From a virus (taxonomy: Duplodnaviria; Caudoviricetes): a DNA stretch of 61,267 nucleotides. This document shows, piece after piece, positions 3,080 to 53,727 of this stretch; within the stretch, counting starts at the first letter, position 1; each line of letters starts with the position of its first letter. Location: positions 1 through 61,267 of IMG/VR virus record IMGVR_UViG_3300018080_000191; one strand, 5' to 3'. The notes beneath the pieces are model-generated. The model worked only from the letters and a program-made list of their open reading frames with translations. It was not told the DNA's origin and did not search any database. Position numbers and translations under genes: made by a program.

Positions 3080-3086
3080 GGTAAGG

Positions 3087-6912: not shown

Positions 6913-6926
6913 GGGGGTGTAGTGTT

Positions 6927-12573: not shown

Positions 12574-12574
12574 A

Positions 12575-14474: not shown

Positions 14475-15371
14475 TTGAAGATCTTAATAATAAACATCGA
14501 CAGTAAAATCCCGAATTATGCTTTAAAGAAAATTGAGGCATATCACCGGGATCGGAAAGATGAAGTTATCTGGGACTTTCCGCTTGCGAAATACAGCGTG
14601 GACAGGATCTACGTTTCTTGTATTTTCGCCAAGAATAAAGCTTTGTGTAATGAATATGAGATTATGGATAACGCCTTTATTGGTGGAAGTGGCTATGATT
14701 TGGATACCAACCTCCCGGATGATATTGAATCTGTGAAACCCAGGATAAACCTTGGGTTTACGACTCGTGGCTGTATAAGAAAATGCGGATTTTGCGTTGT
14801 CCCCCGAAAAGAGGGTAATATAAGAGTTGTTGGTGACTTATTGGATTTATGGGATGGTCTGGCAAAAAAGATTGTGTTGTTGGATAACAACATACTTGCT
14901 ATGCCAGAGCATTTTCGTTTGATATGTAAGCAGGCTCGGGATAATAAGATAGCTTTGGATTTTAACCAGGGCCTGGATCACCGCCTGATTGACGATGGTG
15001 TTGCAAAGGAGCTGAAATCGGTATCGCACGAGTTTTATCGACTAGCCTTTGATCACCCATCTTATTTTAAGAATGTAGAGAAAGCTATCGATATTCTTCA
15101 TGCCCATGGACTGATATATAATATCTGGTATGTTTTGGTTGGTTATGATGCCACCATTGAAGAAGATTTATTCAGATTGAACTATTTGAGAAATAGGAGG
15201 GAGAGAGTATTTCTTCAGAGATATAGGCATGATCCTATTTACGTTCCTATGGCACAGTGGGCTAATAACCGGAGCTGGTTTTCGAAAATGACATTTGATT
15301 ATTTTATCAGGAATCATTCGAAAGGCGTGAGATATAAGGAACTCTATCGAGATATTTTGAAAATTGCGTGA
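14475..15371 (+). CDS. radical SAM protein
   Basis: TTRGCIRKCGFC CxxxCxxC motif, LLDNNIL, FNQGLD. Confidence 0.9.
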   Translation: MKILIINIDSKIPNYALKKIEAYHRDRKDEVIWDFPLAKYSVDRIYVSCIFAKNKALCNEYEIMDNAFIGGSGYDLDTNLPDDIESVKPRINLGFTTRGCIRKCGFCVVPRKEGNIRVVGDLLDLWDGLAKKIVLLDNNILAMPEHFRLICKQARDNKIALDFNQGLDHRLIDDGVAKELKSVSHEFYRLAFDHPSYFKNVEKAIDILHAHGLIYNIWYVLVGYDATIEEDLFRLNYLRNRRERVFLQRYRHDPIYVPMAQWANNRSWFSKMTFDYFIRNHSKGVRYKELYRDILKIA

Positions 15372-27809: not shown

Positions 27810-27844
27810 GTTTCGAAATGGGTATTTATATAGGGGATAAAATC

Positions 27845-30800: not shown

Positions 30801-33238
30801 TGGCCACTGTGCAGCAGTTACAGTTGGGGCGTGCTAAAAAACCGGTTATTGTCGTTCCAAAGGCAACTTATAAGGGATGGTTAAGCGAAATCCGGGACCT
30901 GTTCCCAAACCTGAAGATTAACGAGCTAGACAATTTACGTGGGTACAATAAAGATAATATGCCGGATATTAAAGATGGAACGCTATCGATATGTACCTAC
31001 CAGGCTCTTGACAACCTGACATTTAAAGATGATACGCTTTTTGAGTTGTCAGAGGATCTTGAGGATACTATGGCCAATCCGTTTGGTGTTGACATAAAGG
31101 CCGGTAGTGCAGAAGAGAAGCGCAGAGAAAAGGAACGGGAGCGTATAAAGACAAAATTAGGCGAGGGAGCGAGCGTTGTAAGTGACGTTATTCATGTTGA
31201 GGATCTGGGATTTGACCATATTACGGTTGATGAAGCTCATAACTTTAAGAACGTGTTCTCGAAAGCTGAGGCCGAAAAGAATCAGGATGGCTCGAAGGCT
31301 GCAAACGAATATTCTACAGTAACGGGATCGTCCAGTGTGCGCGGGTCTAAGATGTTTATGTTATCGCAGTATATACAGCGCAAGAATGAGGGGCGAAATG
31401 TGTTTATGTTGACAGCAACACCGTTTACGAACTCCCCCTTGGAGATTTATAACATGCTATCATTCATGGCGCGGGATAAGCTGAAAGAGATGGGAATTTA
31501 CAACATCAATCAGTTTCTCAGTGCTTATGCCAAGGTCCAGGACGAATGGGCAGTGTCTCATACGGGACAAATTACGAAAAAGGGCGTAATCAAGGAGTTC
31601 CATAATGTTGGTGCTCTTCAAAAGCTGATAAAGCAGTATATCGATTTTAAGGGAATCGATGACATTAACGAAAGAGCTGGTTACGAAGCCATAAAGAGAC
31701 CGAAGAAATTTCAGCATCTTGTCGAGCTCCCGAATAATCCCGAGTTGGAAAGCATACTAGAGGGTGAACAGAGAAGAATGACGGATATCGAAGAAATACG
31801 AAAGGGCGGGGTGCTGAAGGGGATTAACACGTCTAGGACGGCAACGCTCTCTCCGGCCCTAGTGGCAAGCAAGCTCGATGATTTTCATAGTGCTGATGTT
31901 CGGACAAAAAAATGGGATTTGGTTGAGGACAGCCCAAAGCTGAAATTTAGTTTTGGCCTCACCGCCGAAATGTACAAAAAGAGGCCGGATTTGGGGCATG
32001 TAATATACATTCCCCAGGGGGTGGAGAAATTCAAGGAGATGACCGAGCACCTGGTTAAGCAGGGCGTTCCCAAGGATGCAATTGCAACTATTCATGGCGG
32101 TATGAGTGGCGATAAGGGAGCTGAGCGAATTGAGGCGATTAAGAAAGAATTTAACGATCCTGACGGGAAAATTAAGGTTTTAATCGGCAGCTCCACTATT
32201 CTGGAGGGTATCAATCTGAACGGCAATACGGCATTTTTGCATAATACAATGTTGGGGTGGAACGCCAGCGAAACGGTGCAGCTCGAGGGCCGGTCATGGA
32301 GACAGGGAAATAGACAGGAGAATGTTCACATAATTACTCCCGTTATTCATGATTCGATTGATTCTGTGATGTATCAAAAACATGATGAAAAAAAATCGCG
32401 GTTTGCGGAAATCCATAACTTCAAGGGCGATAAAATGGATGCTGGTGAGATTGACTACAAGGACGTAAAGTTTGATCTTATTAAGGATCCGGAGAAAAAA
32501 GCTCAATTTAGGATCGAGCTCGAAACCGAGAGGTTGAACGATCAAAAGCTGGAGAAGAGAATTTTGAAAGACGGGATTGGCAATATTGCCAAGCAGCGTG
32601 ATGAAAGTATAAATGAGATACCGAGACTGGAAGAGGATATAAAAGAGCATGATCAGAAGATGGAGGAGCTCAAAGGGGCTATTGATAAGGCGCGAGCTGA
32701 AATTAAGGAGATGCCAAACGAAACTGATGAGCAGCTTAGTGCGATTGAGCGAAAAAAGAGGTTTGAGGTTGACTATGTAAAGGATGACTACGATCACGAG
32801 AAGCGATATCGGGATAATAAAAAGAAAAAGATTGAAACCCTGAAGGTGCAGATTGAGGTTTTTAATAAAAAAATGAACGAGTTGGGTGGCGAGGATATCA
32901 ATGCCACCATTGCGAATCTTGACCAGGAGATAGACGAGATCAATAATACGATTAAGGGATTCCAGGAGAAAAAGAGCCAATATGTCGAGGAGGCAAAAAG
33001 GGATATAGAGCGCAAGAAAAAAGTGGTCCCTGGCGTAAATGAACAAATAACCAAATATGCTGAAATGCTATTGGAAAACGTGGAGTACAGCAAGGAGTAT
33101 CAGGAATTACTCGAGGAGTCTAAGAAAAAGTATAAGGTTGGCAAAAAGGTTGTAAAGGCACATGTTCTGCCAAAAGCCAGAAAAGAGCCCCGGACGTATA
33201 TTTTTGGGGGTGTAACATATAGAATGATAGGAGAGTAA
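27845..33238 (+). CDS. DarB-like protein: N6-adenine methyltransferase plus SNF2/SF2 helicase
   Basis: MTase QYYTP, LEPAAGTG, VIGNPPY, AYRLP..TF; helicase EVGVGKT, DEAHNFKN, LTATP, EGINL, QLEGRSWRQGN; C-terminal coiled coil. Confidence 0.9.
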   Translation: MKLAELLNKARKNTLRKGKPPGKLDTSKLVRKQIIDKTGRRTTKWVRVVKEEKKSIWDIISGFFKNRDPIRVVHEEYDKHRIKDRFGINMKSWTEHFVEYFKNKAKWDKLFGKTKTTTGGGGGKTGGGGGKTGGGGEKATPTLNRNVMKFLYETYGNLREAKDGKDQPGAGREVLSEAGEDERGKAQAKVSVAVPDAQPSDHGSQSTVSGSGSGIGSGNKSWKQGLKEIKDIRAQCLEILKKSDEEITYDDLQILRQYEGIGGVESEGRGILDQYYTPHKVISKMWDLVAKYPQRRQSGKWNSRVLEPAAGTGRFADGISGDVNFDMIEPDPIAARINKLLHPDANVIEGEFQSLFFKEGRLHQKKYTGKKYDVVIGNPPYRPYEGKWKGMGEGKGHTQMHEYFIDRGLDTLIAGGILAMIVPSGFLRSANSKVKEEIAKKGRLLEAYRLPNGTFNTTAVGTDILIIRKEEGGSTEHFFDDNYFNDNPTHILGEESTRTGKFGPERFVSLRTGQTFDSTIDMINVNAVERVGMGEKTLSEEAKEKISLALMGNKNAEKEIHEEHKDNFKEAHKGESVELLESLLGAEKANEAKDQARVEALQEMVDQRKKTKYNDVGTWNLKKFHRELSESIKTGGVHESDLEQAKKNLTEMEVELQKRQEWTKEDEKKAKQREKIKKQEATAPEATEKKKKEFYTLDEFIKQYGGKFDELDLKIWRHTKNDGSIDISQTPWNKDSKGRICYLGGKYYHNTNYASGNVIEKLKKLEEEKDEIIKKFGKEQYTRQKELLESVKPEYKTTKEIVMSPLSSFVRDFRFEWDKDENDSQKSLIQLFWDWCGVESNWRGTNFNGGATPHDLTGGIDWDDIVEYVNRVPRKKSQHETKEFVGQIKAKRRENAERLFNRFIQEGLSGKYKEDFENRFNERFNSNVNADFANIPVFVDGLSKTFKGDKLQVKDVQLEGAAYLTNKGAGLLAYEVGVGKTLTGILATVQQLQLGRAKKPVIVVPKATYKGWLSEIRDLFPNLKINELDNLRGYNKDNMPDIKDGTLSICTYQALDNLTFKDDTLFELSEDLEDTMANPFGVDIKAGSAEEKRREKERERIKTKLGEGASVVSDVIHVEDLGFDHITVDEAHNFKNVFSKAEAEKNQDGSKAANEYSTVTGSSSVRGSKMFMLSQYIQRKNEGRNVFMLTATPFTNSPLEIYNMLSFMARDKLKEMGIYNINQFLSAYAKVQDEWAVSHTGQITKKGVIKEFHNVGALQKLIKQYIDFKGIDDINERAGYEAIKRPKKFQHLVELPNNPELESILEGEQRRMTDIEEIRKGGVLKGINTSRTATLSPALVASKLDDFHSADVRTKKWDLVEDSPKLKFSFGLTAEMYKKRPDLGHVIYIPQGVEKFKEMTEHLVKQGVPKDAIATIHGGMSGDKGAERIEAIKKEFNDPDGKIKVLIGSSTILEGINLNGNTAFLHNTMLGWNASETVQLEGRSWRQGNRQENVHIITPVIHDSIDSVMYQKHDEKKSRFAEIHNFKGDKMDAGEIDYKDVKFDLIKDPEKKAQFRIELETERLNDQKLEKRILKDGIGNIAKQRDESINEIPRLEEDIKEHDQKMEELKGAIDKARAEIKEMPNETDEQLSAIERKKRFEVDYVKDDYDHEKRYRDNKKKKIETLKVQIEVFNKKMNELGGEDINATIANLDQEIDEINNTIKGFQEKKSQYVEEAKRDIERKKKVVPGVNEQITKYAEMLLENVEYSKEYQELLEESKKKYKVGKKVVKAHVLPKARKEPRTYIFGGVTYRMIGE
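28196..28258 (+). repeat. 21-nt tandem repeat encoding TGGGGGK linker (~3 copies)
   Basis: TGGGGGK TGGGGGK TGGGGEK. Confidence 0.75.
28332..28523 (+). CDS. candidate overprinted 63-aa gene inside the DarB-like linker
   Basis: GGGAGG SD 7 nt before ATG; helical-looking product; the host frame here is a low-complexity linker. Confidence 0.4.
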   Translation: MEKINLVLDERYFPRLARMNAERLRQKLVSLCQMHNLPITEANLRSVAADLESDLATSLGSKD

Positions 33239-33243
33239 TAGCG

Positions 33244-35379
33244 ATGAAGGCTGAAACTGAGAATCTGAAGGCTTTATTGAAAGCCGGCGGGCATAAGTAT
33301 ATCAAGAGATTACCGCACCCGAGCCCGAAGCCTGGAAGGAAGTACATCTATTTCTACAACCAGGAGCAGATTAAGAAGTATAAGGAAACAGGCGAGATCC
33401 CGGGAGACGAAAAGGGTGAAAAAAAGAGCAGCGTACTTGGTACGATAATGAAATTTTTTGGGTTCAAGCGCGAGACTGAAGCGGATGCAAAGGTAAGGGC
33501 GGTAAATGCAGAGTTGAGTGATGCTGGCCTTCATGTTGGATATACTACAACGCTGGAGCACATGGCCGAGTATTTTTCCAATAAGGCCAAGTGGGATGCC
33601 AGGTTCTCGAAAAAAAGCGGTGGTGCTAAGTCCGGAGCAGGATCGGGTGAGAAAAAGACTGGTGGCGGAGCCAAACCCGAGAAGAAATGGAATACTAACG
33701 TTATGAGGTTCCTGTACCAAAAATACGGCAGTGGCGGAGGGGCTAGCGATGACCAGGCCAAGAAAGAAAAGGAGTTGCGCGAGCTTGGTATAGCAGAAGA
33801 TGTAATTGAGCAACGAAAAGAAGAGGATGGCGATCTGGATACCCTTTACGATGAGTCAATGGGGGTGGGAGAGGAAAATGCTGATAAAATGAGGGAAGAT
33901 CTGAAAAAGGATATCAATGGCCTGCTCGACAAATATGAATCTGCAGAGGGCAAGGAAAAGGAAAAACTTGCCGGCCAGGTAAAGGAGAAGTTTGGGCAGC
34001 TCTCGAAGGAAGACAAGGAGAAACTGCTCGATGAGCGGAAAAGGAGTGGTGAAAAGGGTAAACCAGAAGAGAAGAAGGGAGATGTTGACGATTCCAATGA
34101 TTTTGGTGTGGATAGACTGAAAGAAAATGAGAAAAAGTTATTGCTTGAGATAACTGGCGATAAGGATGTGAAAAAGGTTCTTGAAAAATGGAAGGCAATT
34201 GACGATGGCATTTTCAATGATAAAGAGTTAGTCGTTTTAAATGGGATAGTTTATCACAAGCTAGACTCAAATAAAAGGCCATTAGCAGGTGCAGTTAATT
34301 ATAAAAAGTTTAAGGAAGAATATCCTCATTTTGTTTCGAATGATATGCTGCATAAAGATTCTTTAATTCACGGTGGGGTATTTGTACTGACCCCAAAAGG
34401 TGAAGATGTGCTAAAAGGCAGAGTCCGGAGATTATTGACTAAGTTTGGCAAGGGGAAAGAGAAGGGCATACCTCAAGACGAGAAGCTTTCCAAGCGTGAA
34501 GAGCAACTCTCCAGGATGGTTGAGAAGCATGAAAAAGGAGTTGATAAGGAGACCCAGAAAAAGACCGAGGAGATCGCCGAAGGGGCGGGAGTTGATACGG
34601 GTAAGGTACCTGATGAGCCAGGCACAGAATACGGTCATCCGTCCATCGAGGGTACCCTGGTCCACGGCGATGCCGATACTGTTTTAAAGAAACGGTCCAA
34701 CCCGAAGAAAGCCCTTGAGCCTGGAGTTGCAGATTTATCAGACCATTTTGGCATACACATGATGAACGAAGCTCTCGAAAAAGATGGAATCTATACCAAC
34801 ACCAAATTTATGATTATTGATGATCCTAAAAACGTTAAAGACATATACGAGAAGAACAGGGAAAAATTTATTGATAGCCGGGTCAAGGATATTAAAAAAT
34901 CCGTAAGTAAGGGAGATGGTGAACCCTTGTCTGATGAAGAGGCCCGAGAATTGGCGATAAAGAATCTTGAAGATGAAATGAATAATGCCAAAAAACTGCC
35001 CTGGCAAAGTGCTGTGCCGAAGGAGAAGGATATCCCCAAGAAGGAGGCGCAGATTATTGGCGGATACAAGACTGCTCAGGCAAAAATGTGGTGCTCTCTC
35101 CTCTCTGATGGGGAAAATCATGCTTTTGTCCAGAATGACTACATTGCAATGTTCAGGAAGCGGTATCCTGGTGCAAGATTTAAAGTAACAAGCAGCAAGG
35201 GGGCCGGGAAAAGTCCTGTTGTTGTCGAGAAAGATGGCAAAATGGTAGGTGTTGTTATGCCTATACTGATGGGATCGAATGCTGGCGAGGCTCGGGATCA
35301 CCTGCTGGAGCAGCAAAAGAAGCGGGGCCTGAAAAAAGCACTTGGCGAACCAATTGAAATATTTGGGATAAGGGTATAG
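33244..35379 (+). CDS. 711-aa putative virion cargo protein; C-terminus possibly beta-clamp-like
   Basis: N-terminal domain shared with neighbours; C-terminal YIAMF...SPVVV...VGVVMPI; tail KALGEPIEIFGIRV. Confidence 0.7.
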   Translation: MKAETENLKALLKAGGHKYIKRLPHPSPKPGRKYIYFYNQEQIKKYKETGEIPGDEKGEKKSSVLGTIMKFFGFKRETEADAKVRAVNAELSDAGLHVGYTTTLEHMAEYFSNKAKWDARFSKKSGGAKSGAGSGEKKTGGGAKPEKKWNTNVMRFLYQKYGSGGGASDDQAKKEKELRELGIAEDVIEQRKEEDGDLDTLYDESMGVGEENADKMREDLKKDINGLLDKYESAEGKEKEKLAGQVKEKFGQLSKEDKEKLLDERKRSGEKGKPEEKKGDVDDSNDFGVDRLKENEKKLLLEITGDKDVKKVLEKWKAIDDGIFNDKELVVLNGIVYHKLDSNKRPLAGAVNYKKFKEEYPHFVSNDMLHKDSLIHGGVFVLTPKGEDVLKGRVRRLLTKFGKGKEKGIPQDEKLSKREEQLSRMVEKHEKGVDKETQKKTEEIAEGAGVDTGKVPDEPGTEYGHPSIEGTLVHGDADTVLKKRSNPKKALEPGVADLSDHFGIHMMNEALEKDGIYTNTKFMIIDDPKNVKDIYEKNREKFIDSRVKDIKKSVSKGDGEPLSDEEARELAIKNLEDEMNNAKKLPWQSAVPKEKDIPKKEAQIIGGYKTAQAKMWCSLLSDGENHAFVQNDYIAMFRKRYPGARFKVTSSKGAGKSPVVVEKDGKMVGVVMPILMGSNAGEARDHLLEQQKKRGLKKALGEPIEIFGIRV

Positions 35380-35381
35380 AA

Positions 35382-38300
35382 ATGCAACCGATACTATTTG
35401 AGATCGCAGATTGTGATGACCATATCGGTAAATTAAAAGAACTTCTTAAAGCTGGCGGTAAGAAGGACATCAGCAAGCTCCGGAAGGAAGTCATTACCAA
35501 TAAGCGCGGGAAGAGGCAGACCGTATATAAGAAAATCCATGAAGATGAGAAAAAAAACGTTTTTGACATCATCATGGAATTTTTCGGATTTAAAAAGAAA
35601 AACGAGGTGCTGCAGCAGCTTGATAGCGATTACAAGAAACATGATATCGCAACAAAATTCAATCTGTCACACGATCAGTGGACCAGTCACTATCTGGAGT
35701 ATTTTAAGCACAAAAAGAGATGGGATGCTGCATTTGCCAAAAAAAAGACTACCGAAGGTGGTGGAGAACGCAAAAAGGGTGGTGAAAAGAAAACAGGGGG
35801 TGGCGATGAGAAAAAGAAAGGCATTACCTGGAACAGGGACGTGATGAAGTTTTTGCACGAACTCTACGGGAAAGGGAAGCCGGAGACAGAAAAAGAGGTG
35901 GGGAAATACAAGGACCTGGTTGGTAAGAAATTTAAAATATCTACTACCATGGTCAGCGGTTCGAGCATGAAGCCCGAGAAGATAGATAGCGAGATAGTTG
36001 TTGAAAAGATAGATGACTCAGGGATACATTACCGGGATGCCAAGGATGTTGGAAAACCCGCCCACGAGGGTGGTAGTGGATTTATGACTTTTAATGGTTT
36101 TAACAGGATGGTTGCTGCAGGCGAGATGATGGAGATAAAGCCTGATGTCACCGAAAAAGTTAAGGAGTTGCTAACCACAAAAAAAGAGCGGAAAAGAAAA
36201 CCACTCAGCAGCGGGGAAGGGGAGAAAGAAGAGAGCAAGCCCCGGGGCCCTACCGAGGAAAAGAAGAAATATCTTGATGTTGGCGAAAAGATAGGCGGAG
36301 CCAGGAAAGATATCGCAGCACTGATGAACATGTATAAAACCGAAAAAGATAAGGCTGTATCCATGACAGATCTGGAAGCCATTGAAGAGTCTGGCGAAGC
36401 CGGCTTGCTGATAAATAGAGAACGCCAGTTCGGAGGCAAGAAAGCCATTGTTGATATGATGCGCTCTGTGGGAGCTGATTCTGGGGCTACATATATTGTT
36501 TGGAGACTGGCATCGAGCATCGAAAAAATGCCTGCCGATAACCCAGAGTCCCGGAAAAAATATGTATTGGGAATTGAGCGATTGCTAAAAACAGTTGTGA
36601 ACTGGACTGATGTAAGTGCAGCAAGAGAGGGGTTGAGTATTATACAATCCGAACTTAACGGATATTATTATACAGATAGTGAGCTTGCAACATCGAAGGC
36701 AATAGACGAAAGGACATCAAAAATCAAGTCTGAGATAAATAAGATATGGAATCAAATATATATTCCCAAATATAAAGGTACAGGCGGGGACTGGAGAAGA
36801 AAAGCATCAGATATTTTCTGGAAGGACCCGGATGTTGTTAAGCTAGAAAAGCAAAAAGATGAGCTAAGGAAGGAATTTTTAAAAATAAGAAAAGTGGCGC
36901 AAGAGAGATCGGATAATGACCCCATGTCTCCGGCAAACCTGTATAAGGCACTCGGGAAAAGCTTTACCGAACTTATTGCCCCTCCATGGAGATCGAAGAG
37001 GAGAGATACGCTTATAAATAATGCCTACAAAAATGATGACTGGAAGTGGGCGGGAGGGGCGAAGGAAACCGGCGAAGAGGAAAAGGAGCGCAAAAAGAAG
37101 AGTCGAGAAAGGTTGAAGTGGAGACGTGAGGTTCCCGAGGAAGTTGAACGCGTGTCTCAGGCTGGGACCAAGGATTACGAATCAAAAACGCTTATGAATG
37201 ATTTCGGGCTCAGGGCTGTTGAATACGGCAACTGGATGGATATAGAATCGAGCAAGATCCATACACAGCGAGCTGGCGAAGCCCTGGCGGACCTGGCCTA
37301 CCTTTTTGGTGTGGATAAGAAGCTGATATCCCTGAACGGCAGGCTCGCAATAGCGTTTGGAGCTCGAGGGAAAGGTAAAGCCTCAGCTCATTATGAACCC
37401 GGGAGAAAGGTTATCAACATCACAAAAGAGAGGGGTGGCGGGTCCCTGGCGCACGAATGGGGGCATGCCCTAGACAATATCCTGTCCATAGTGGCTTATA
37501 AAGAAGCCGGCCAGGAGGGGGGCAATATTTCTTTTATGTCCGATTCGGACTATAAGAATAAGTATTCTCATACACTGGGAACGGTTCAAACTGCGTTAGA
37601 CAAGGTTAATGATGCCATACATAAGGGCAGTTTTGTGATGCGGAAAACCATCAATCTGAAGGGAAGCGAAAGATATCAACATAGTACTTTCTGGAAGTAC
37701 GAGGAAAGAACCGCAATAGGGCTTTATGGGGAGCCAAATGAGAAGGGCAGGTTACAAGAAATATGGAAAGAGGTTAAAACCACCAACGATAAATATAAAG
37801 GTGATAACGAAGCCCACAAAAAGCCGGAGTTTTATGATGATCTATTTGCTCATAAAGACCTACAGCATCCAGTAGACAGAGCAAGGATGCGTGAGTTCAT
37901 TGAGGGTGATATTTTATACCGTAGCGATTTTGCAATGAAACACGTTTGGGAACTTGTGCCAGGTGAAGGCATTATTGACTGGAAAACCGTTGATGTCGGT
38001 AAACTCGGGGAATACTTGCAGAAAAAGGCTGATGAATATGTTGATACAAGGAAAAGTCAATATGATGACGATTATTTTAAAAGAAAATATTTAGAAAAGG
38101 ACTGGGATCGTCTTGACAAAAGGGTGGCTTATGAATTCAGGAAAGAGAGTGATGCTGACTATATAATGTCAAAACTTTATCATGATGGAGACAAAAAAGA
38201 GCCGATCACCATTAACATGAAAAGCGTTCGTCCTGTTGGGGGCAAGTCCAACTACTTTTCCACTGCAAGCAAAATGGGGGGGTATTGGAAAAGGCCTCAT

Positions 38301-38612
38301 GAGTTATTTGCCCGCGCATTTGAAAGCTACGTTTACGATAAGCTCAGGGAAAAGAACATGAAGAACAGCTATCTTGTTTCTGGTGTGTCGAAAGAGGCTG
38401 CTGCGAATTGGGGGAAAAAGGCCAAGGAGCTCGAGGGCGAGGGTGGGGTGACAAGCATATACCCCCTGGGAGACGAGAGAGAGCGTATTAACGCTGCTAT
38501 GGATGAACTGGTGGAGGCAATCAAGGAACACGAAGTTTTGGCAAAAGCAATTCAGATCCTGGATGCTCAGCTCCTAAAAGCTCCTATCGAAATTTTTGGG
38601 ATTAAGGTGTAA
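35382..38612 (+). CDS. 1076-aa LPD1-type polyvalent protein with zincin motif
   Basis: DVGEKIGGARKD, VEYGNW, LAIAFGARG, AHYEP, SLAHEWGHALD, YWKRPHELFARAFESYV, YP.G.ER. Confidence 0.85.
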   Translation: MQPILFEIADCDDHIGKLKELLKAGGKKDISKLRKEVITNKRGKRQTVYKKIHEDEKKNVFDIIMEFFGFKKKNEVLQQLDSDYKKHDIATKFNLSHDQWTSHYLEYFKHKKRWDAAFAKKKTTEGGGERKKGGEKKTGGGDEKKKGITWNRDVMKFLHELYGKGKPETEKEVGKYKDLVGKKFKISTTMVSGSSMKPEKIDSEIVVEKIDDSGIHYRDAKDVGKPAHEGGSGFMTFNGFNRMVAAGEMMEIKPDVTEKVKELLTTKKERKRKPLSSGEGEKEESKPRGPTEEKKKYLDVGEKIGGARKDIAALMNMYKTEKDKAVSMTDLEAIEESGEAGLLINRERQFGGKKAIVDMMRSVGADSGATYIVWRLASSIEKMPADNPESRKKYVLGIERLLKTVVNWTDVSAAREGLSIIQSELNGYYYTDSELATSKAIDERTSKIKSEINKIWNQIYIPKYKGTGGDWRRKASDIFWKDPDVVKLEKQKDELRKEFLKIRKVAQERSDNDPMSPANLYKALGKSFTELIAPPWRSKRRDTLINNAYKNDDWKWAGGAKETGEEEKERKKKSRERLKWRREVPEEVERVSQAGTKDYESKTLMNDFGLRAVEYGNWMDIESSKIHTQRAGEALADLAYLFGVDKKLISLNGRLAIAFGARGKGKASAHYEPGRKVINITKERGGGSLAHEWGHALDNILSIVAYKEAGQEGGNISFMSDSDYKNKYSHTLGTVQTALDKVNDAIHKGSFVMRKTINLKGSERYQHSTFWKYEERTAIGLYGEPNEKGRLQEIWKEVKTTNDKYKGDNEAHKKPEFYDDLFAHKDLQHPVDRARMREFIEGDILYRSDFAMKHVWELVPGEGIIDWKTVDVGKLGEYLQKKADEYVDTRKSQYDDDYFKRKYLEKDWDRLDKRVAYEFRKESDADYIMSKLYHDGDKKEPITINMKSVRPVGGKSNYFSTASKMGGYWKRPHELFARAFESYVYDKLREKNMKNSYLVSGVSKEAAANWGKKAKELEGEGGVTSIYPLGDERERINAAMDELVEAIKEHEVLAKAIQILDAQLLKAPIEIFGIKV

Positions 38613-38615
38613 GTT

Positions 38616-39758
38616 ATGGATGGAATATCAATGCTTAAATCAAAACTTGAGGAAACTGCTCACAAATCCCCGCCGAAGGAATATCGAGAAGAGGGGGCAG
38701 CAGATCGGGGGGATTATGCAGACCCAAAACGATATAAATACCCTCTCCATACGGAAAAGAATGTTCGGGCTGCAATCAGCTATTTTGCTCAACCCGATAA
38801 TCACGGGATGTATTCTCCAGAAGAGCGAAAAAGTATAGCCAGGAAAATTTTTAACGCAGCCCGGAAGTACAATATTGAAGTAAGTGATGACTGGAAGGAA
38901 AAGTTTAACCTATCCAAGGCGATGGGCCAGGATGGGGAACGAGAGCAAACAGGTGGTACAGGTTTTTGTGTATGCCCGAAGTGTGGACATAGAGCAAAGC
39001 ATGACAGGGGAAAGCCCTGCAATACATTAACCTGCCCCGAGTGTGGTGTTGCACTGACGGGGGAGGGGACCGCTGGAAGTAAACTCAAAAAGAGTAAGGT
39101 AATTAAGACGCGTGTAATTCTTACCCGAGATGGTAAAATGCTTATGAAAAGCCGGACCGGAAAAAAGGAAAATCCTGCAATAACAGTAATAACAAAAATG
39201 GTAAATGAATATGAGATAAACGGTGGAGACCCGGCTGTAGCAATTGAAAGTATTCGGAACGTCGTGAATAGCCATAAGGATCGGCTCCCGAACCTATCAA
39301 AAGTCCTGGAGGATGAATTTGGAAGTAGAACGCTGAAGGCGAAAGATACGTCCAGGTTAATTAAAAAGCAGATTATCAACAAGCAGGGCAAGAAGCAAAC
39401 AGTATACGTGAGGCCCGGGGAAGATCCCCAAAAACAGGTCCAAGGGCAGCAACAACCCGGGGTGCAGCAGGCCAGAAAAGATTCTGATACCGCGAAAGAG
39501 GAGAAGAAAAAGTCAAAACGGGACATGTTTAAAAACGCTATTAAAAATTTGATTGAGACGATGACGCAGGTATTTTCGGGCCAAGGTGGGACAGAGCAGG
39601 CAACGGGCACGGCACAGCAAGCTGGCGAGGATGCGTCAAGGGTTGGCATTGCACAGAGGAAGGAAAAAACTGCGAAAAAACGAGAGAAGCAAGCAGAAAA
39701 GAAAACAGAGAAAAAGTCTGGAAAAGATTATTATACAGGAACCCTGTTTGAATTATGA
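38616..39758 (+). CDS. 380-aa multidomain protein: DUF6582-like, Zn ribbon, basic tag
   Basis: KYPLHTEKNVRAAISYF; CVCPKCG..H..G.PC...CPECG; KDTSRLIKKQIINKQGKKQTVYVRP. Confidence 0.75.
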   Translation: MDGISMLKSKLEETAHKSPPKEYREEGAADRGDYADPKRYKYPLHTEKNVRAAISYFAQPDNHGMYSPEERKSIARKIFNAARKYNIEVSDDWKEKFNLSKAMGQDGEREQTGGTGFCVCPKCGHRAKHDRGKPCNTLTCPECGVALTGEGTAGSKLKKSKVIKTRVILTRDGKMLMKSRTGKKENPAITVITKMVNEYEINGGDPAVAIESIRNVVNSHKDRLPNLSKVLEDEFGSRTLKAKDTSRLIKKQIINKQGKKQTVYVRPGEDPQKQVQGQQQPGVQQARKDSDTAKEEKKKSKRDMFKNAIKNLIETMTQVFSGQGGTEQATGTAQQAGEDASRVGIAQRKEKTAKKREKQAEKKTEKKSGKDYYTGTLFEL

Positions 39759-39979
39759 AAAACGGAATTGAAATAGTAAACGGTAAAATCGTTCTCGATA
39801 AAGTCGAGAAAAAGATAATGTGTCGGCAGTGTCGAAAGATTATTGCACTTAAAAATAGAAACACCCTTTTATATAAGGGGATGGTGGCCCATGTTCAGGA
39901 TTCGGCACTTGTCCGATGTGACAGATGTAAAACATATAATGTGATTCGCTTAAATGACAAAAAAGAGGAAAAAAAGTAG
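39755..39979 (+). CDS. Mu Com-like zinc-ribbon protein
   Basis: CRQCRK...VRCDRCKTYN, located just before the head operon promoter. Confidence 0.6.
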   Translation: MKNGIEIVNGKIVLDKVEKKIMCRQCRKIIALKNRNTLLYKGMVAHVQDSALVRCDRCKTYNVIRLNDKKEEKK

Positions 39980-40216: not shown

Positions 40217-41083
40217 ATGAGAATCGTAATCGGTAATTTTCAACTTCAAAAGGCTGATAGGCCTGAGGATGATAAATATGTATACGTCCGGATGATTGCC
40301 AATCGGCTTGATATTGATAAAGAAAACCAGCAGATTTTACCCCAGGCATTTAGTAAGGCAACCATTGAGAATTTTCTGAAAAACGGGATTATCGACTGGC
40401 ATCATCAGAGTGTCCTAGGGAAAACCAGCGAGGAAAGAGCTAAGGCTATCCTGGGGGAACCTTACGATTTCAAGTGGGAAGATGGTTTGCCGGTTGTATA
40501 TGCCAGGTTAACCAAGGGCCATCCTATAGTACGAGACTCTATTCTTCCCCATCTTGATGCTGAGCAGCGGGTATTCAGCGCGAGTGTTGGTGGGTCTATC
40601 AAAAAGATCAAAAAGTTTTTTGATAAGGCGATCAATACGGCGAAAGAGGAAATTTTGGCTATCGATTGGAACCATTTGGCGATAGCTGCCACACCGTATG
40701 TTATTTCTGCTGGGTCCGCGGTGAGTATGGTTAAGGCCCAAAACGATCTGTGCGTTGAGTTTAGCGATGTGTCTGCATTTGAGAGCGAAATAGATATTAT
40801 CACGAAAGAGGGGGAATTGCGTAAGGCCCTCCAGATGGGAGCTGGAACAGATGTATCGAGTTTAGCCGGGGCTGACGCTCTCAGGATGCAAAGCCTGGAG
40901 GGGGATCGGCAATATAACCGATTACGAGATGATGTTATGTTTGCCATTATGGATGGAACAATTACGCCATCTCGGGACAGCGTAATGATGTTTTTAAAGG
41001 CCAAAGGTGTTCCCGAGAGAGAATCAAGGGATTTCCTGTCTCAATTTTTAAAAAGCATACGAAACGCCATTCAAACCATTTAA
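40217..41083 (+). CDS. prohead (capsid maturation) protease
   Basis: DKENQQI, IDWHH, FSASVGG, LAIAATP motifs; precedes scaffold and capsid. Confidence 0.82.
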   Translation: MRIVIGNFQLQKADRPEDDKYVYVRMIANRLDIDKENQQILPQAFSKATIENFLKNGIIDWHHQSVLGKTSEERAKAILGEPYDFKWEDGLPVVYARLTKGHPIVRDSILPHLDAEQRVFSASVGGSIKKIKKFFDKAINTAKEEILAIDWNHLAIAATPYVISAGSAVSMVKAQNDLCVEFSDVSAFESEIDIITKEGELRKALQMGAGTDVSSLAGADALRMQSLEGDRQYNRLRDDVMFAIMDGTITPSRDSVMMFLKAKGVPERESRDFLSQFLKSIRNAIQTI

Positions 41084-41097
41084 GGAGGAAATATATA

Positions 41098-41790
41098 ATG
41101 AAAGGCGATGAAATTAAAGTTCTCTCGGATTTACTTAATCTCGAAAAGCTGTCAAAGGCTGAAGAGGTTAATGATGACGAAGAAAGAGATGATGAGGACG
41201 AGTATAACGAGGAATACATGAAGAAATACATGAAGAAGTTCATGAAGAGCAACCGGGACTATGTTGCCAAGTGTTCTGAGGATCTCGGATTCGTCAAAAA
41301 GGCTATCGATACCGAAGTGGAAAATATCGAAGGTATTGAAGAGGCCGATGCAACACTGGTCGATGGGACAAGTTTTATCAATGCCCTGTCTGACGGTATG
41401 GGTGTACTCGCTAAGGCTGTGGCCGGGATTATCGAAGAGATGGCAGAACTGAGAAGTGAGCTTGAGTATCAAACCGAACTGTCAAAGGCTTCTGGCGGTG
41501 TTCTTGTGAAAGCTGCTGAGGCACTGGATGAGCTCTCATCTGCACCTCTCGAAAGGCGTGGTCACGATTTTGCACCGCAAGACAGGAGTGCTGATGGCGG
41601 TGGTAACGGGTCTGCACTTCGAAAAGCAAAAAACCTTAGCGTAGATGAAATCAAGAGAATGGCCTTAAGGGCTGCCCAGGAAGGTGACAACAGAGCTGCT
41701 TCGCTGGTTACAGATCTGGACTGCTGCAATGGCAATCTCGGGATGTTGAGAAAGGCCTCAATAAATCTGATTGAAGAATTAGCAAGCTAA
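41098..41790 (+). CDS. capsid scaffold protein
   Basis: Acidic helical protein between protease and capsid; seven hydrophobic-x-KA motifs. Confidence 0.7.
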   Translation: MKGDEIKVLSDLLNLEKLSKAEEVNDDEERDDEDEYNEEYMKKYMKKFMKSNRDYVAKCSEDLGFVKKAIDTEVENIEGIEEADATLVDGTSFINALSDGMGVLAKAVAGIIEEMAELRSELEYQTELSKASGGVLVKAAEALDELSSAPLERRGHDFAPQDRSADGGGNGSALRKAKNLSVDEIKRMALRAAQEGDNRAASLVTDLDCCNGNLGMLRKASINLIEELAS

Positions 41791-41812
41791 GAGATAAAGG
41801 GGGAATATTAGG

Positions 41813-43306
41813 ATGGAAATTACAAATCAAAAAGAGTATTGGGAAGGTTTCGGGCAATCGAGCGCAGAAGATGTCCAGAACCTTTTAAAGGCTCTTCAGG
41901 CCCAGGAAGGGATTACGGACGTTGCGAACCTGATTGGCGTAGGAGCCCTCCAGCCTCAAAGCCTGGAAGGAACTCTCGCTCTTCTCACATTTCAGGAAAA
42001 GCACCTTGCCCTGTGGCGAGATATCCCGAAGGGGATGGCTGAAAGCACACTCGAAGAATACTCCGTGCAGCTCGGGTATGGCCAGGATTCGAGTGGCTGG
42101 GTCCAGCAAATGGAATCGGCTCTTGAGTCTGATGCTGAGCTTGCTCGCGAATATGCGATCATGAAGTATCAGCGACAGATGTGGAAATTTTCGGATGTTG
42201 CCGGAATCGTTAAGACCATTAGCCCTGTTGAACGTGTTCAAAAACAGGCTGCTGCTCTCAGGTGTTTGCGAAACATGAACAGAACGCTGTATTCTGGCGA
42301 CTCCAATATGATTTCTGAATCGATTGACGGTTTTGAAAAGACCATTCTGAACAATGGCTCTTCTGATCACGTAATCGATTTGCGTGGTGCTTCGCCTGCT
42401 CAAAAGAATTTTCGAGAAGCTGCAGAGCTGATAACGGCGAATTTTGGTAATGTCGAAGGTGCTGGACTGTATATGTCTCCTGGGGCCCTGACGACTATTA
42501 GCCAGATCATCGAGACTAATCAGCGGTATGCACAGAACCAATTGGGGGCCGATGGAAACCTGAGCCTGGGGCACAGAATCAATGTGATTCATACCGATTT
42601 TGGCTCCATCACGCCTAAGGTCGATATCTTTCTTGCGGGTGAATATGACGGAAGAACCGTTCCCAAGATAGCAAGCCCTTCGAACCCGAAGGTCCTTGTT
42701 GAGGGTGCTACTTCTGAGCGAGCTCCCGGGATGCCGTCAATAGCGGTTACTGCCCAGGGTGCAACGGTATCGGGTTCCTTGTGGAGTGACACCGGTACTC
42801 GTCCGTCTGCCAAGACATACAACTTTCGAGTGGCTGCTGGAAACAGGTTTGGTTTAAGCAAGGCTTGTGCTTCTGCAAATGCGGGTGAGAACGTGGTTGC
42901 AAATGGTTCTCTTACCATCACCATTACCCCGTCTGGGGCAAGCAACTATCCTGCAACCTACTACGAAATTTATTCCGAGCAGGTCGCTGGATCGGGCGTT
43001 TTCCGCTTTCTTGCACGAGTTAAGGATAGTGGTGCCGGAACTACCAGCTATGTGGATCTGAATAAATACATTCCTGGGACTTCGCGGATGTTCTTGCTTG
43101 ACCTTACCTCTCTCGGGGATCTGAGAACCTTCATGCTGAAGAGGCTGGCCCCGATGCACTCGAAAGAGTATGCAAGAATTGGTGAGTTTCGCTGGGGAAG
43201 CGTGAACCTCTATGCTACTCCTCAGTATTACGCACCGTTGCGTTTCGTACTTTTTATCAACGTTCCGGTTGGCGTACAGAGCAAGTCCTCAAGAATTGAC
43301 CTGTAA
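41813..43306 (+). CDS. major capsid protein (SPO1/Twort-like) with Ig/FN3-like insertion
   Basis: LLKALQ...GALQPQSLEGTL, STLEEY; beta-rich insert YNFRVAAGNRFG..YYEIY. Confidence 0.9.
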   Translation: MEITNQKEYWEGFGQSSAEDVQNLLKALQAQEGITDVANLIGVGALQPQSLEGTLALLTFQEKHLALWRDIPKGMAESTLEEYSVQLGYGQDSSGWVQQMESALESDAELAREYAIMKYQRQMWKFSDVAGIVKTISPVERVQKQAAALRCLRNMNRTLYSGDSNMISESIDGFEKTILNNGSSDHVIDLRGASPAQKNFREAAELITANFGNVEGAGLYMSPGALTTISQIIETNQRYAQNQLGADGNLSLGHRINVIHTDFGSITPKVDIFLAGEYDGRTVPKIASPSNPKVLVEGATSERAPGMPSIAVTAQGATVSGSLWSDTGTRPSAKTYNFRVAAGNRFGLSKACASANAGENVVANGSLTITITPSGASNYPATYYEIYSEQVAGSGVFRFLARVKDSGAGTTSYVDLNKYIPGTSRMFLLDLTSLGDLRTFMLKRLAPMHSKEYARIGEFRWGSVNLYATPQYYAPLRFVLFINVPVGVQSKSSRIDL

Positions 43307-51676: not shown

Positions 51677-52169
51677 TGGCTTCTTTATGCGAACGTTCAA
51701 GCAGTTTCCAGATGGCTGCGATCCCCACAATCTCCTTGAAATCCAGAGAGAATTTATCATGTACCTGGTTGCTGCAACACCATCGGTTGACGCATTAAGC
51801 GTCTGGTTGCAATACATGGAAGAAAAACATAAGATCGATAGCGAGGACTTCCTGGGTAAGATTGGTCAGAGCGAACTTACCTTGAAGATGGCTGCAGACA
51901 AAAAGGGAATGTCGGTCGAGCGGTATAAAAAAGAAGTCATCAAAACAATGAAAGAAGAAAAAATTAAACAGCTAAACAAGAAGTATGGCTATGGGGATAG
52001 CGAAGAGAAAGAAAACCAGGTTGAAAGTGCGGTGGACAGGATCCGGAGGTTCTCAGAGCAACTCTCCCAAAGGGAAAATGACGGCCAGCAGCTAAGAAAA
52101 CTGATATTCGAGAAACCAGAAGGCCTAAGAGAAGGCCTAAGAGAAGGCCTAAGGGTAGAAGATGGCTAA
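51627..52169 (+). CDS. tail assembly chaperone frameshift extension (T-like)
   Basis: Frame opens at 51627 within the A9 tract; ATG 51687 lacks an SD. Confidence 0.65.
   Translation, partial: KKIDLIKESLKNKYLVDGFFMRTFKQFPDGCDPHNLLEIQREFIMYLVAATPSVDALSVWLQYMEEKHKIDSEDFLGKIGQSELTLKMAADKKGMSVERYKKEVIKTMKEEKIKQLNKKYGYGDSEEKENQVESAVDRIRRFSEQLSQRENDGQQLRKLIFEKPEGLREGLREGLRVEDG
52118..52153 (+). repeat. 12-bp tandem repeat x3 (AGAAGGCCTAAG)
   Basis: Three exact copies encoding EGLR. Confidence 0.85.
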
Positions 52170-53727
52170 GGAATACAAAATAGACATTGGTGTCGGTGTT
52201 AAAGAAGATCGAAAAGGGGTGTCCGATTTACGCGAGCGCATCAGCCAGGCCAGGGAGATCAGAAAACAAGCGGGAAAGGGCACTGGGTGGGGTATTGAAA
52301 CCTCTAATTTTCAGCTTAATAAAAACATCCAGAAAATAGTAAAATCCAATGAGGATTTGATTCGTGCCTTGAAGGAAAATACAAGGACCGCTAGAAGAGG
52401 AGATGGTGGGCGTAGGGGTGGTCCTAGTGGACGGGGTATTGATGGAGCTTCAGGCGTGGGTATATCTCGGATAGGCGCATCGACCATTATCCCAGGGCTT
52501 GGTCTTGCTCTTGGTATAGCTGGATTCGCAATACATCAAATGATGCGAGTGGGGAAAGCGCATCTTGCCAAGGCACAAGAACAGATTATGACTGCCGGTA
52601 TAGCGGGAACGCGAACCGGAATGGAGAGTTATTTTAGCGCAGCTCAGGCTGGCGAGTTTGTAAAAGCCCGACGAATGGCTGCAGGAACTTATAAGTCACC
52701 CGGGGGCGATCAAAGAATGACTGCCCTCTATGCAAAAAGATTCGGACTGAGCGGAGCCGATGTCGGGAAACAGCTCGGGATAATGGATCTGATGACGGGG
52801 GGATATGGTGGTAAGAATTTTGCTCGAATAATTGAGACAGCTCACCAGAAAGGGATACAGACCGAAATGCCTCTCATGATCAACATGATTACGGATTCCC
52901 TGGAGCAAGCCGTGGAGGCGGGTGTTAATGCCTCAAATCTCGCAACTGATTTGGCTGGTGAGATATCGAGAAATGCAGCATATTCTCCCAATGCCTCTAT
53001 TCGACCCATTATCGCAATGACCAGAAATTTGATGCAGTTACAACAGCAGGTTTCCAGGGGACAATACAGCGGAGTGTCCAACTGGAGAATGTTTGAAGCT
53101 GGTCGTGAAAAAGTTACCAAAGCCGTACTGGGTAGGGGCGGTAAAACCGGAGATAGAATTGTTCAGTCTCTTATCGCTGGTGGAACAATAACTCAGAGAG
53201 AGGTTGAGCAAATCAGAAAAGCTGGCAATATATCGCCTATTGTAATGGAATACCTAACCCGAAGTTATTTACAAAAAACACCAGAAGAGGCTAGAACAGC
53301 ATACATGAAAGATATTGTTGGTACGCTCGGGAAAGGGAAAACGGGACTGCAGCGAAGGGCAATGCTGGCAAATAGGGCAAGACAGTTCGGGATAACCGAA
53401 AATGTTGCGGAAACTGATTATTATTATCGTGTTGCCACGGGCCAAAAAATTAGCGATAGGTTTACAGATGTGAAACGCCCAGCATTTGACGAAGGCAAAT
53501 GGCAACAGACGACTGCATTTGCAGCCCAGGGATTACAAAACGCAAGAGAGGCATTTTTACTAACCAGTAAGGCTGCACAGTATTCCGCACGCCAGGTCAT
53601 AAAGTTTGAAAAAATATTGATACAGCTCGCAACAACGCTAGAGGGAACGGTTTCAAAATCCTTGAATGATTTATTGAAGCGTACAAATAAGAAATCATCG
53701 TCATTTCTTGATATCATTACAAATTAA
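52162..53727 (+). CDS. tape measure protein (short)
   Basis: Ala/Gly-rich helical protein with a hydrophobic stretch, following the chaperones. Confidence 0.7.
   Translation: MAKEYKIDIGVGVKEDRKGVSDLRERISQAREIRKQAGKGTGWGIETSNFQLNKNIQKIVKSNEDLIRALKENTRTARRGDGGRRGGPSGRGIDGASGVGISRIGASTIIPGLGLALGIAGFAIHQMMRVGKAHLAKAQEQIMTAGIAGTRTGMESYFSAAQAGEFVKARRMAAGTYKSPGGDQRMTALYAKRFGLSGADVGKQLGIMDLMTGGYGGKNFARIIETAHQKGIQTEMPLMINMITDSLEQAVEAGVNASNLATDLAGEISRNAAYSPNASIRPIIAMTRNLMQLQQQVSRGQYSGVSNWRMFEAGREKVTKAVLGRGGKTGDRIVQSLIAGGTITQREVEQIRKAGNISPIVMEYLTRSYLQKTPEEARTAYMKDIVGTLGKGKTGLQRRAMLANRARQFGITENVAETDYYYRVATGQKISDRFTDVKRPAFDEGKWQQTTAFAAQGLQNAREAFLLTSKAAQYSARQVIKFEKILIQLATTLEGTVSKSLNDLLKRTNKKSSSFLDIITN

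Follow-up and report, generated by a model that had tools for sequence, protein, structure and literature searches.

The head genes and their lysine motif

Between positions 40,217 and 43,306 of the 61,267-bp contig of an uncultured virus (IMG/VR record IMGVR_UViG_3300018080_000191; Duplodnaviria, Caudoviricetes), three genes encode a predicted prohead protease, a scaffold and a major capsid protein, in this order (Table 1). The whole stretch, positions 1 to 61,267 of the record, is called the window here. The products of these genes, together with the portal and a set of giant proteins encoded upstream, carry a short motif in which a hydrophobic residue (Φ), any residue and a lysine are followed by a small residue, Φ-x-K-[AGS]; in the names of sites, a slash after the lysine stands for the predicted cut. 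A sequence-only reading of the window had proposed that the motif is the site of the head protease, that it marks the full set of head-internal substrates, and that it predicts which proteins are packaged. From our comparative analysis, the product of 40217-41083 is most likely a serine prohead protease that would cut after Lys in hydrophobic-x-Lys/[Ala or Ser], with Gly also used at cargo tags. As an overall explanation, cutting of both the head core and the packaged cargo by the head protease at this Lys motif appears probable to us, and for the head-core sites taken by themselves we are rather confident that they would be cleavage sites.

The capsid protein connects the motif with known phages. 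Profile searches of the PDB matched it to SPO1 Gp6.1 (9vel, E 3e-45) and to 5lii (E 5.7e-25), and by tblastn it is 25-29% identical over 95% of its length to proteins of SPO1-like and Twort-like phages; it is also 25-29% identical to capsids of Leptospira LE1, Bacteroides DAC and Thermus Lalka phages. We aligned 84 capsid homologues (27-100% identity), of which 82 are full-length and two are N-terminal truncations. Among the 82, the column of K26 holds Lys in 81, the position two residues before it (P3) is Leu in 77 and Ile in 5, and the residue after it (P1') is Ala in 79 and Ser in 3; the leader that precedes this site is 23-56 residues long and poorly conserved. In the family profile, K26 aligns with Lys24 of the 463-residue precursor of phage 812 (PDB 5lii), and a second 812 capsid chain, of 439 residues (PDB 9row), has the 5lii sequence starting at Ser25, directly after Lys24. 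From the chain lengths and the alignment register, we take the 9row chain as the depositors' mature protein, which fits the statement of the sequence-only reading that capsid proteins of the Twort type are shortened by a brief N-terminal leader, cut off at a Lys. SPO1 Gp6.1 (9vel) has LNK/A at the equivalent place. In the full-text literature we found no statement of the Twort-type capsid cut site, and subscription papers or supplements could hold one; the accessible part of a staphylococcal-phage paper on matrix-assisted laser desorption/ionization (PMC5923470) has nothing on capsid processing.

The scaffold, which has no Pfam or PHROG match, carries LSKA at K20, VKKA at K68, LAKA at K106, LSKA at K130, LVKA at K138 and LRKA at both K176 and K219, and further FMKS at K50; cuts at its seven Φ-x-K-A sites would leave fragments of at most 48 residues. 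The baseline for enrichment was 2000 composition-preserving shuffles per protein. Against 0.53 [LIVM]xKA expected, the scaffold has 7, a count that none of the shuffles reaches; the protease has 3 against 0.52 (p 0.016). Taken together, the head core (portal, protease, scaffold and capsid) holds 14 against 2.13 (6.6-fold), and five cargo open reading frames (ORFs) hold 22 against 8.68 (2.5-fold), neither total being reached in 2000 shuffles. Counts stay at background level in the 20 neck and tail ORFs (8 against 5.46, p 0.18) and in 35 other upstream ORFs (7 against 6.73, p 0.52). This comparison of head and cargo with tail and accessory proteins had been proposed by the sequence-only reading, and all the tetrapeptides that it listed for the capsid, scaffold, protease, portal and cargo are present. 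Gly at P1' was dropped from the whole-protein pattern, since it diluted the signal; allowing G or S there weakens the enrichment in this genome.

In the portal, sites lie near both ends, at LIK27/A and at LEK541/A, the latter 12 residues before the C-terminus. Among 39 portal homologues (25-100% identity), Φ-x-K-[AGS] occurs within the first 60 residues in about 33 and within the last 45 residues in about 35, typically about 12 residues before the C-terminus, counts that come from inspection of printouts in which some matches may be non-homologous. The C-terminus in the window (6865-6909) consists of an acidic run, LEK541/A and a 12-residue basic tail ending RTLLM. Most of the 39 homologues repeat this arrangement of acidic run and site, with a short tail that is either basic or hydrophobic.

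For the protease, the AF2 model (predicted local distance difference test, pLDDT, 77.9) was compared with known structures. In VIA it matched T4 gp21 (5jbl; Z 10.8, root-mean-square deviation 3.0, 134 residues aligned) and, through model residues 17-176, herpesvirus proteases, or assemblins (Z 7.4-10.2); herpes proteases and gp21 were also the top Foldseek matches (probability 0.93-0.99, with weak E values of 8e-4 to 8e-3). By this model the fold is assemblin-like, of the type of T4 gp21 and herpes assemblin. By tblastn there were weak matches (E 1e-6 to 2e-7) to the "capsid maturation protease" of ~90-kb phages. Six residues are invariant in 13 homologues: K12, H63, S123, H153, K173 and K203. 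The herpesvirus protease has a Ser-His-His triad, as described in the accessible part of PMC4498786, and the invariance of H63, S123 and H153 resembles it by residue type. The three lysines belong to motif sites. The K12 site is [LIF]-x-K-[AST] and the K173 site is [LMI]-x-K-[AS] in 13/13 aligned homologues, and the fold match stops at about residue 176, where the invariant MVK173/A sits. At the third site, LRK203/A, residues 201-229 of the protease repeat capsid residues 24-53, with 18 of 30 identical (pairwise E 9e-5). This copy of the capsid N-arm is kept in 13/13 homologues and is found also in SPO1, Silviavirus and Thermus Lalka proteases; the protease profile matches the N-terminus of the SPO1 capsid Gp6.1 in the PDB (9vel, E 0.0034). 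In the model the region has a pLDDT below 50. From this likeness it seems that the protease would dock by mimicry of the capsid N-arm, until a cut at the shared motif sets it free.

The motif in related phages

Locus scans with a 14-sequence alignment (A2; a 29-sequence alignment, A1, was too diverse) returned 11 viral and 24 metagenomic loci. A single-protein locus search gave no relatives in viral contigs, and the DNA of the protease-capsid region matched no deposited phage. As a guard against post-hoc choice of the motif, we scanned all 400 Φ-x-X-Y patterns in 15 related scaffold-position ORFs. The KA pattern occurs 64 times against 8.6 expected and KS 68 times against 9.9, both with z about 20, the next pattern having z about 6; the scaffolds are homologous, so these family-wide z-scores overstate independence, a kinship that has no bearing on the enrichment in the scaffold of the window taken alone or on the counts made locus by locus. 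In the same ORFs, Φ-x-K-[AS] amounts to 132 against 18.6 expected. Arg is no substitute for Lys (Φ-x-R-[AS], 0 against 3.9), and Glu and Gln are depleted (Φ-x-E-[AS], 8 against 17.6). In seven non-redundant loci, [LIVM]xK[AS] numbers 41 against 6.5 expected in the protease, 55 against 7.2 in the scaffold, 12 against 6.1 in the capsid and 85 against 51.2 in the upstream ORFs; the 96 downstream neck and tail ORFs have 29 against 35.1, with no enrichment.

These counts bear on the idea that the motif is no protease site and serves instead the structure or the contacts of helical head proteins, for example at coiled-coil a/d positions or where scaffold meets capsid. Φ-x-K-A does suit a heptad register (a-b-c-d), helices are predicted for the scaffold, and a helical tail ORF (52162-53727) is likewise enriched. 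The Lys specificity in the scaffolds argues against a merely helical or charge-based feature: Arg never stands in place of Lys, and Glu and Gln are depleted. Further, the capsid site follows a leader that varies in length and sequence, the mature 812 chain begins directly after the homologous Lys, and the relatives' neck and tail ORFs lack enrichment. We regard such a structural origin of the motif as very unlikely.

The pattern reaches beyond close relatives. The scaffold-position ORFs of 19 related loci have 7-12 Φ-x-K-[AGST] sites each, and AT-rich relatives favour Ser at P1'. Among distant scaffold-position ORFs, that of SPO1L1 has 11 sites against 0.84 expected, of Silviavirus SPJ2 8 against 0.90, of Leptospira LE1 7 against 1.12 and of Thermus Lalka27b 3 against 0.51. 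In these four lineages and in Bacteroides DAC19, the capsid leaders all end in Φ-x-K-[AS]. The head-core code thus extends to cultured SPO1 and Twort-type phages and belongs to a known lineage, beyond this contig alone. We found no Lys code for the scaffold or cargo of SPO1/Twort-type phages in the full-text literature; subscription papers or supplements may hold one.

In staphylococcal phage 80alpha, a host protease cuts the capsid and the scaffold, and this counts for the possibility that a host enzyme or another Lys-specific protease, not the 40217-41083 product, cuts the sites. In the phages considered here, however, the motif is found together with a gene for an assemblin-fold protease, placed directly before those of the scaffold and capsid, an order shared by the related loci examined; this linkage spans lineages whose recorded hosts are Bacillus, Staphylococcus, Thermus and Bacteroides, plus Leptospira phages, and the protease itself holds three invariant sites. 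We give a foreign protease hardly any credence. Chance as the source of the motif was ruled out by the shuffle enrichment, the 400-pattern scan, the relatives' loci and the Lys specificity. By sequence comparison, our results support that the motif acts like the site of a prohead protease at both portal ends, in the scaffold, in the capsid leader and in the protease. We infer that the 40217-41083 product is the cutting enzyme and that it would cut every site listed here.

Genome setting and cargo proteins

Table 1. Coordinates of the features discussed, in positions of the window.
Feature	Position	Strand	Remarks
Small and large terminase	2904-5032	+	PHROG/Pfam
Portal, 553 residues	5251-6912	+	phrog_12
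SLT lytic transglycosylase	6909-7805	+	Pfam E 2.1e-12; directly after portal; hydrophobic N-terminal segment
Accessory genes			~13 kb between transglycosylase and cargo block
Giant cargo proteins			17-kb block directly upstream of protease, scaffold and capsid genes
Polyvalent cargo protein 1, 1919 residues	21648-27407	+	Pfam
Basic hairpin modules of cargo protein 1	22785-22892, 23916-24023, 25269-25376		fourth (K1744) degenerate
DarB-like cargo protein 2, 1806 residues	27818-33238	+	Eco57I-type methylase, SNF2 helicase, Helicase_C; phrog_10089
Cargo ORF, 711 residues, no family	33244-35379	+	leader ends LLK13/A
Cargo ORF, 1076 residues, LPD1	35382-38612	+	leader ends LLK23/A; module 35463-35570
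DUF6582 protein, 380 residues	38616-39758	+	internal TLK241/A and module 39342-39449
Prohead protease, 288 residues	40217-41083	+	predicted fold, invariant residues
Protease catalytic domain, assemblin fold (predicted)	residues ~17-176		then linker
Protease site LQK12/A	40244-40255	+	predicted N-terminal self-cut
Protease site MVK173/A	40727-40738	+	end of catalytic domain
LRK203/A and capsid N-arm copy, protease residues 201-229	40817-40903	+	
Protease C-terminal helical domain	residues 231-287		
Scaffold, 230 residues	41098-41790	+	acidic N-terminal stretch; seven [LV]-x-K-A sites
Major capsid protein, 497 residues	41813-43306	+	SPO1/Twort type; phrog_752, E 1.2e-72, residues 11-487
Capsid leader, residues 1-26, ends LLK26/A27	41813-41890	+	homologue alignment
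Neck, sheath and baseplate genes			downstream of capsid gene

The gene layout comes from PHROG and Pfam searches of the ORF products. All plausible genes lie on the plus strand across the 61 kb, and the GC skew is strong and positive (0.06-0.34) along this full length; the completeness of the genome is estimated at 46%. The head module is split in an unusual way, with about 33 kb of accessory and cargo genes between the portal and terminase genes and those of the protease, scaffold and capsid. A metallophosphoesterase (7936-8826), an RNA ligase (12557-13468), a nucleotidyltransferase (13629-14420) and a radical SAM protein (14475-15371), all assigned by PHROG, form a cluster that looks like an RNA repair or modification set. 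The ORF at 15368-17398 (LKKA at residue 59, ILKG at residue 238) had been labelled MuF in the sequence-only reading; it has no MuF match and no motif enrichment, and its matches are a weak one to NT5C (Pfam E 0.0048) and one to a 5'-3' deoxyribonucleotidase PHROG. The portal-adjacent ORF 6909-7805 is no MuF-type head protein either, its product being an SLT transglycosylase. Just upstream of the protease gene, and separated from it by a 237-nt gap, lies a 74-residue zinc-ribbon ORF (39755-39979); its PHROG matches, to "translational regulator" (E 4e-4) and to Mu Com (E 8e-4), are weak. Small CxxC ORFs occupy the equivalent place in three related loci (L002, L003 and L005), and the zinc-ribbon ORF may control head-gene translation.

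The cargo block begins with a polyvalent protein of 1919 residues, in which an HELGH region, RadC/JAB, ART-PolyVal, a second ART-like domain, InPase and PBECR3 follow one another. Taken alone, it has 10 [LIVM]xKA against 2.26 expected, and it contains the ITKA, IYKA and LRKG of the sequence-only reading. Its junction sites, K374, K755, K1205 and K1744, all lie between Pfam domains. Each of them is followed by a basic hairpin module with the consensus KDISKLVKKVITNKxGxxQTVYVKP; three copies score E 5e-24, 1.4e-20 and 4.3e-21, values that are circular, since the model was built from the same instances, and the fourth scores 0.68. The HELGH motif itself (22160-22240, residues ~185-195) lies in the N-terminal 374-residue part; an ORF of a relative (L005, 191-1084) shares the region (28% over 214 residues) with HEIGH.

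The next three cargo ORFs (27818-33238, 33244-35379 and 35382-38612) have leaders that end in LLK/A or LRK/G, as in T4-type terminal peptides with a protease motif. In the DarB-like protein, the leader carries LNK18/A and LRK26/G and is followed by a module (27914-28021); near its C-terminus is VVK1780/A, kept as ILKA in the homologue of locus L003. The 711-residue protein, whose K13 is kept in L002, has LKK698/A and then the tail LGEPIEIFGIRV, and the 1076-residue protein, whose K23 and K1055 are kept in homologues, has LAK1055/A and LLK1066/A before the tail PIEIFGIKV. More generally, in seven ORFs of three phages, Φ-x-K-A is followed after 8-20 residues by [FYH]-G-I-[RKE]-[IV] at the C-terminus of cargo proteins. 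Such tails are located here at 35329-35376 and 38571-38609 and also end cargo ORFs in L002 and L011; EFFGFK, similar to them, occurs just after the N-terminal hairpin module. A tail of the FGI[KR]V type may be a docking strand.

In the DUF6582 protein, which also carries the listed LSKA, the site TLK241/A has Thr at P3, outside the pattern of the sequence-only reading, and opens a basic C-terminal part of 140 residues. In L011 and L026 this part stands alone, as an ORF of 127-142 residues, and L003 and L015 have it joined to other proteins; in L011, the basic hairpin module heads six separate ORFs of 142-965 residues. Since the modules stand on separate ORFs in relatives and are fused here, the cargo junctions can be read as gene-fusion seams.

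To see how the module and the motif go together, we searched 1.84 billion representative proteins with a profile (A4) of 18 module sequences that begins after the K site, so that the site itself is excluded. At E ≤0.001, it matched 619 protein clusters, 68-2715 residues long. The best 150 of the 619 proteins contain 175 module copies; minus 7 sequences of our own and 21 copies that stand at a native N-terminus with no leader, 147 remain. In 111 of the 147, [LIVMF]xK[AGS] lies at most 10 residues upstream of the module, against a mean of 5.5 in random windows of the same proteins (standard deviation 2.3, maximum 14, 1000 trials). At the 111 sites, P2 is Glu in 56, and P1' is Ala in 72, Gly in 28 and Ser in 11. 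The module has no Pfam or PHROG match. In a model of the shared cargo N-domain (pLDDT 60.7), the beta-hairpin packs on a helical bundle and the site falls in a low-confidence stretch between the leader helix and the hairpin; the fold has no match in BFVD at E ≤0.001. A tblastn search of 50,697 phage records with the N-domain and the module-bearing C-terminal part gave no match, a result that does not imply absence. The cargo mark is a composite, made either of a short leader, Φ-x-K/[AG] and the basic hairpin, or of a C-terminal Φ-x-K-A and an FGI[KR]V tail. We infer that the hairpin module would be a loading tag or a DNA-associated tag.

Several points weigh against the cleavage proposed here. 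The support for it is comparative throughout, and the kinship of the scaffolds was noted above. The protease has no Pfam family at E ≤1 and no PHROG at E ≤0.001; the capsid taken alone gives a weak signal (2 [LIVM]xKA against 0.45 expected, p 0.08); and no enrichment is seen in the scaffold-position ORF of Bacteroides DAC19 (2 against 0.85). Tail proteins are not expected to meet a prohead protease, and the tail ORF 52162-53727 has 4 [LIVM]xKA against 0.88 expected (p 0.01). Its product, of 521 residues, is helical, without a family match, and probably tape-measure-like. On the cargo side, 36 of the 147 module copies lack the motif, LLLA replaces LLKA in one relative, internal cargo sites are mostly not conserved among homologues, and a conserved site, VPK1015A, lies inside the SNF2 domain and is, because of this position, probably structural. 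Finally, HELGH of the polyvalent protein could belong to a peptidase of its own. From the sequence-only reading, what stands is a conserved, Lys-specific mark of the head core that behaves as a head-protease site; the bare motif is no general marker of packaged substrates. With 15 [LIVM]xKA sites spread over the 55 non-head ORFs and a tail ORF enriched, its use to predict packaging was too strong a claim, and the poor conservation of most internal cargo sites likewise disagrees with a motif that marks the full substrate set.

Whether the cargo junctions would be cut is, on these sequence patterns, an evenly balanced matter in our estimate. The other course would be that the polyvalent proteins are packaged whole, or released by an embedded metallopeptidase, with the repeated unit serving as a loading or DNA-binding element and Lys-Ala forming part of its fold or binding surface. 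HELGH at about residue 190 of the 1919-residue protein, the sites outside modules, most of them not conserved, and the modules without a motif speak for this, and in the accessible part of PMC5512222 embedded zincin-like peptidases are argued for by Iyer et al. 2017 and the N4 virion RNA polymerase is given as packaged unprocessed. On the other side, the HELGH region (residues 101-381) has no Pfam peptidase match at E ≤1, and the motif before the module does not differ from the Lys-specific motif of the capsid leader and the scaffold. In relatives, such units stand at the start of separate small ORFs, and the 21 modules at native N-termini fit a need for the free N-terminus that cutting would create. 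We consider uncut cargo fairly unlikely.

Proposed scheme and its meaning

Based on the reading in which the prohead protease cuts after Lys, we propose the following scheme. Inside the procapsid, the protease would take off the 26-residue capsid leader and dice the scaffold at its seven sites into the small pieces described above. Cutting itself at K12, K173 and K203, it would free its catalytic domain from the C-terminal part, which, with the capsid N-arm copy, probably docks the protease in the shell. It would also trim both portal ends, strip the leaders and C-terminal tails from the cargo, and split the 1919-residue protein at K374, K755, K1205 and K1744, so that every piece would hold one enzyme and begin with a basic beta-hairpin. 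A stronger version of this scheme, in which polyvalent proteins are true polyproteins cut by a stand-alone prohead protease, the hairpin is a general tag for head loading and injection, and the protease is docked by N-arm mimicry, is one that we hold tentatively, leaning somewhat to the doubtful side.

This scheme recalls the head proteases of other phages, for which the sources cited by PMC number were available in part. T4 gp21 cuts after L/I-x-E, dices the scaffold gp22 and carries sites of its own; targeting propeptides are removed from internal proteins, and Alt is trimmed at both ends (PMC9026906). Like gp21, gp22, IPI-III and Alt, the system described here would have a short three-residue code, a scaffold cut many times, N-terminal cargo propeptides and sites in the protease itself, and C-terminal trimming would be shared as well, with T4 Alt and gp21. 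It differs from T4 in having Lys at P1, with a small P1', where T4 has Glu; in a basic hairpin placed after the cut, so that the product would keep it, while the targeting sequence of T4 stands before the cut and is lost; in reiterating the unit within giant polyvalent proteins; and in a protease without a sequence-profile match to gp21 families. By analogy, the best reading is that the system would be a Lys-specific counterpart of that of T4.

With Herelleviridae (812, 5lii and 9row; SPO1 Gp6.1, 9vel), the system shares a homologous capsid, the order of protease, scaffold and capsid, the Φ-x-K/[AS] leader site, motif-rich scaffold-position ORFs and a protease with a copy of the capsid N-arm. 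It differs from them in a capsid identity of 25-29%, in portal and terminase genes 33 kb from the capsid genes, and in the 17-kb block of tagged polyvalent cargo directly upstream of the head genes. In phiKZ and SPN3US, S/A-x-E and A-x-E motifs are shared by many ejected proteins (PMC10052503), and the propeptides have several redundant sites (PMC10052503, PMC9026906). As with phiKZ gp175 and SPN3US gp245, one short motif runs here across head proteins and proteins predicted to be ejected (PMC10052503, PMC9026906). The phiKZ and SPN3US motifs, however, end in Glu, and nearly all of their cuts remove N-terminal propeptides; P1 is Lys here, and cuts at internal domain junctions and at C-termini are also predicted. 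The available part of the Felix O1 paper (PMC3185647) describes a different protease type.

For the cargo, two further systems can be compared. DarB of P1 is packaged through an N-terminal stretch that must exceed 9 residues and takes fewer than 30 (PMC9024508). Like P1 Dar, the phage of the window has a DarB-like methylase-helicase giant protein (phrog_10089) with an N-terminal signal; unlike it, the P1 capsid is cut after Glu120, and the accessible part of PMC9024508 describes no hairpin module or Lys site. The polyvalent proteins of Iyer, Burroughs, Anand, de Souza and Aravind 2017 (PMC5512222) offer ART-PolyVal, InPase, PBECR3, LPD1 and RadC/JAB for comparison, and effector domains of this repertoire occur here several to a polypeptide, adjoining virion genes (21648-27407 and 27818-33238). 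The predicted head location and the analogy to viral polyproteins are likewise common to both. Release in that work is by embedded peptidases, unlike in the scheme proposed here, and assemblin-like peptidases appear as C-terminal fusions alone; the portion of PMC5512222 available mentions neither a junction motif with Lys nor a basic hairpin as a tag.

Two elements go beyond what the sequence-only reading had noticed: the copy of the capsid N-arm in the protease, and the cargo junctions made of leader, Φ-x-K/[AG] and basic hairpin. If the cuts are real, a rule of four residues and a tag of 30 residues would make the mature virion proteome readable from sequence in a large, mostly uncultured group related to SPO1 and Twort, including which anti-defence enzymes enter with the DNA. 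Ends left by cuts after Lys look like tryptic ends, so that trypsin proteomics of SPO1, phage K, 812 and A511 would miss them. Cultured SPO1/Twort-type phages, with 8-11 motif copies in their scaffold-position ORFs, are suited to testing the head core, and the tag could be used for loading foreign proteins into phage heads. For polyvalent proteins, if the scheme is true, release would shift from self-processing to processing by the head protease, and the hairpin tag, which occurs in at least 619 clusters of proteins that are not related in other respects, would serve generally to load proteins into the head and deliver them to the host with the DNA.

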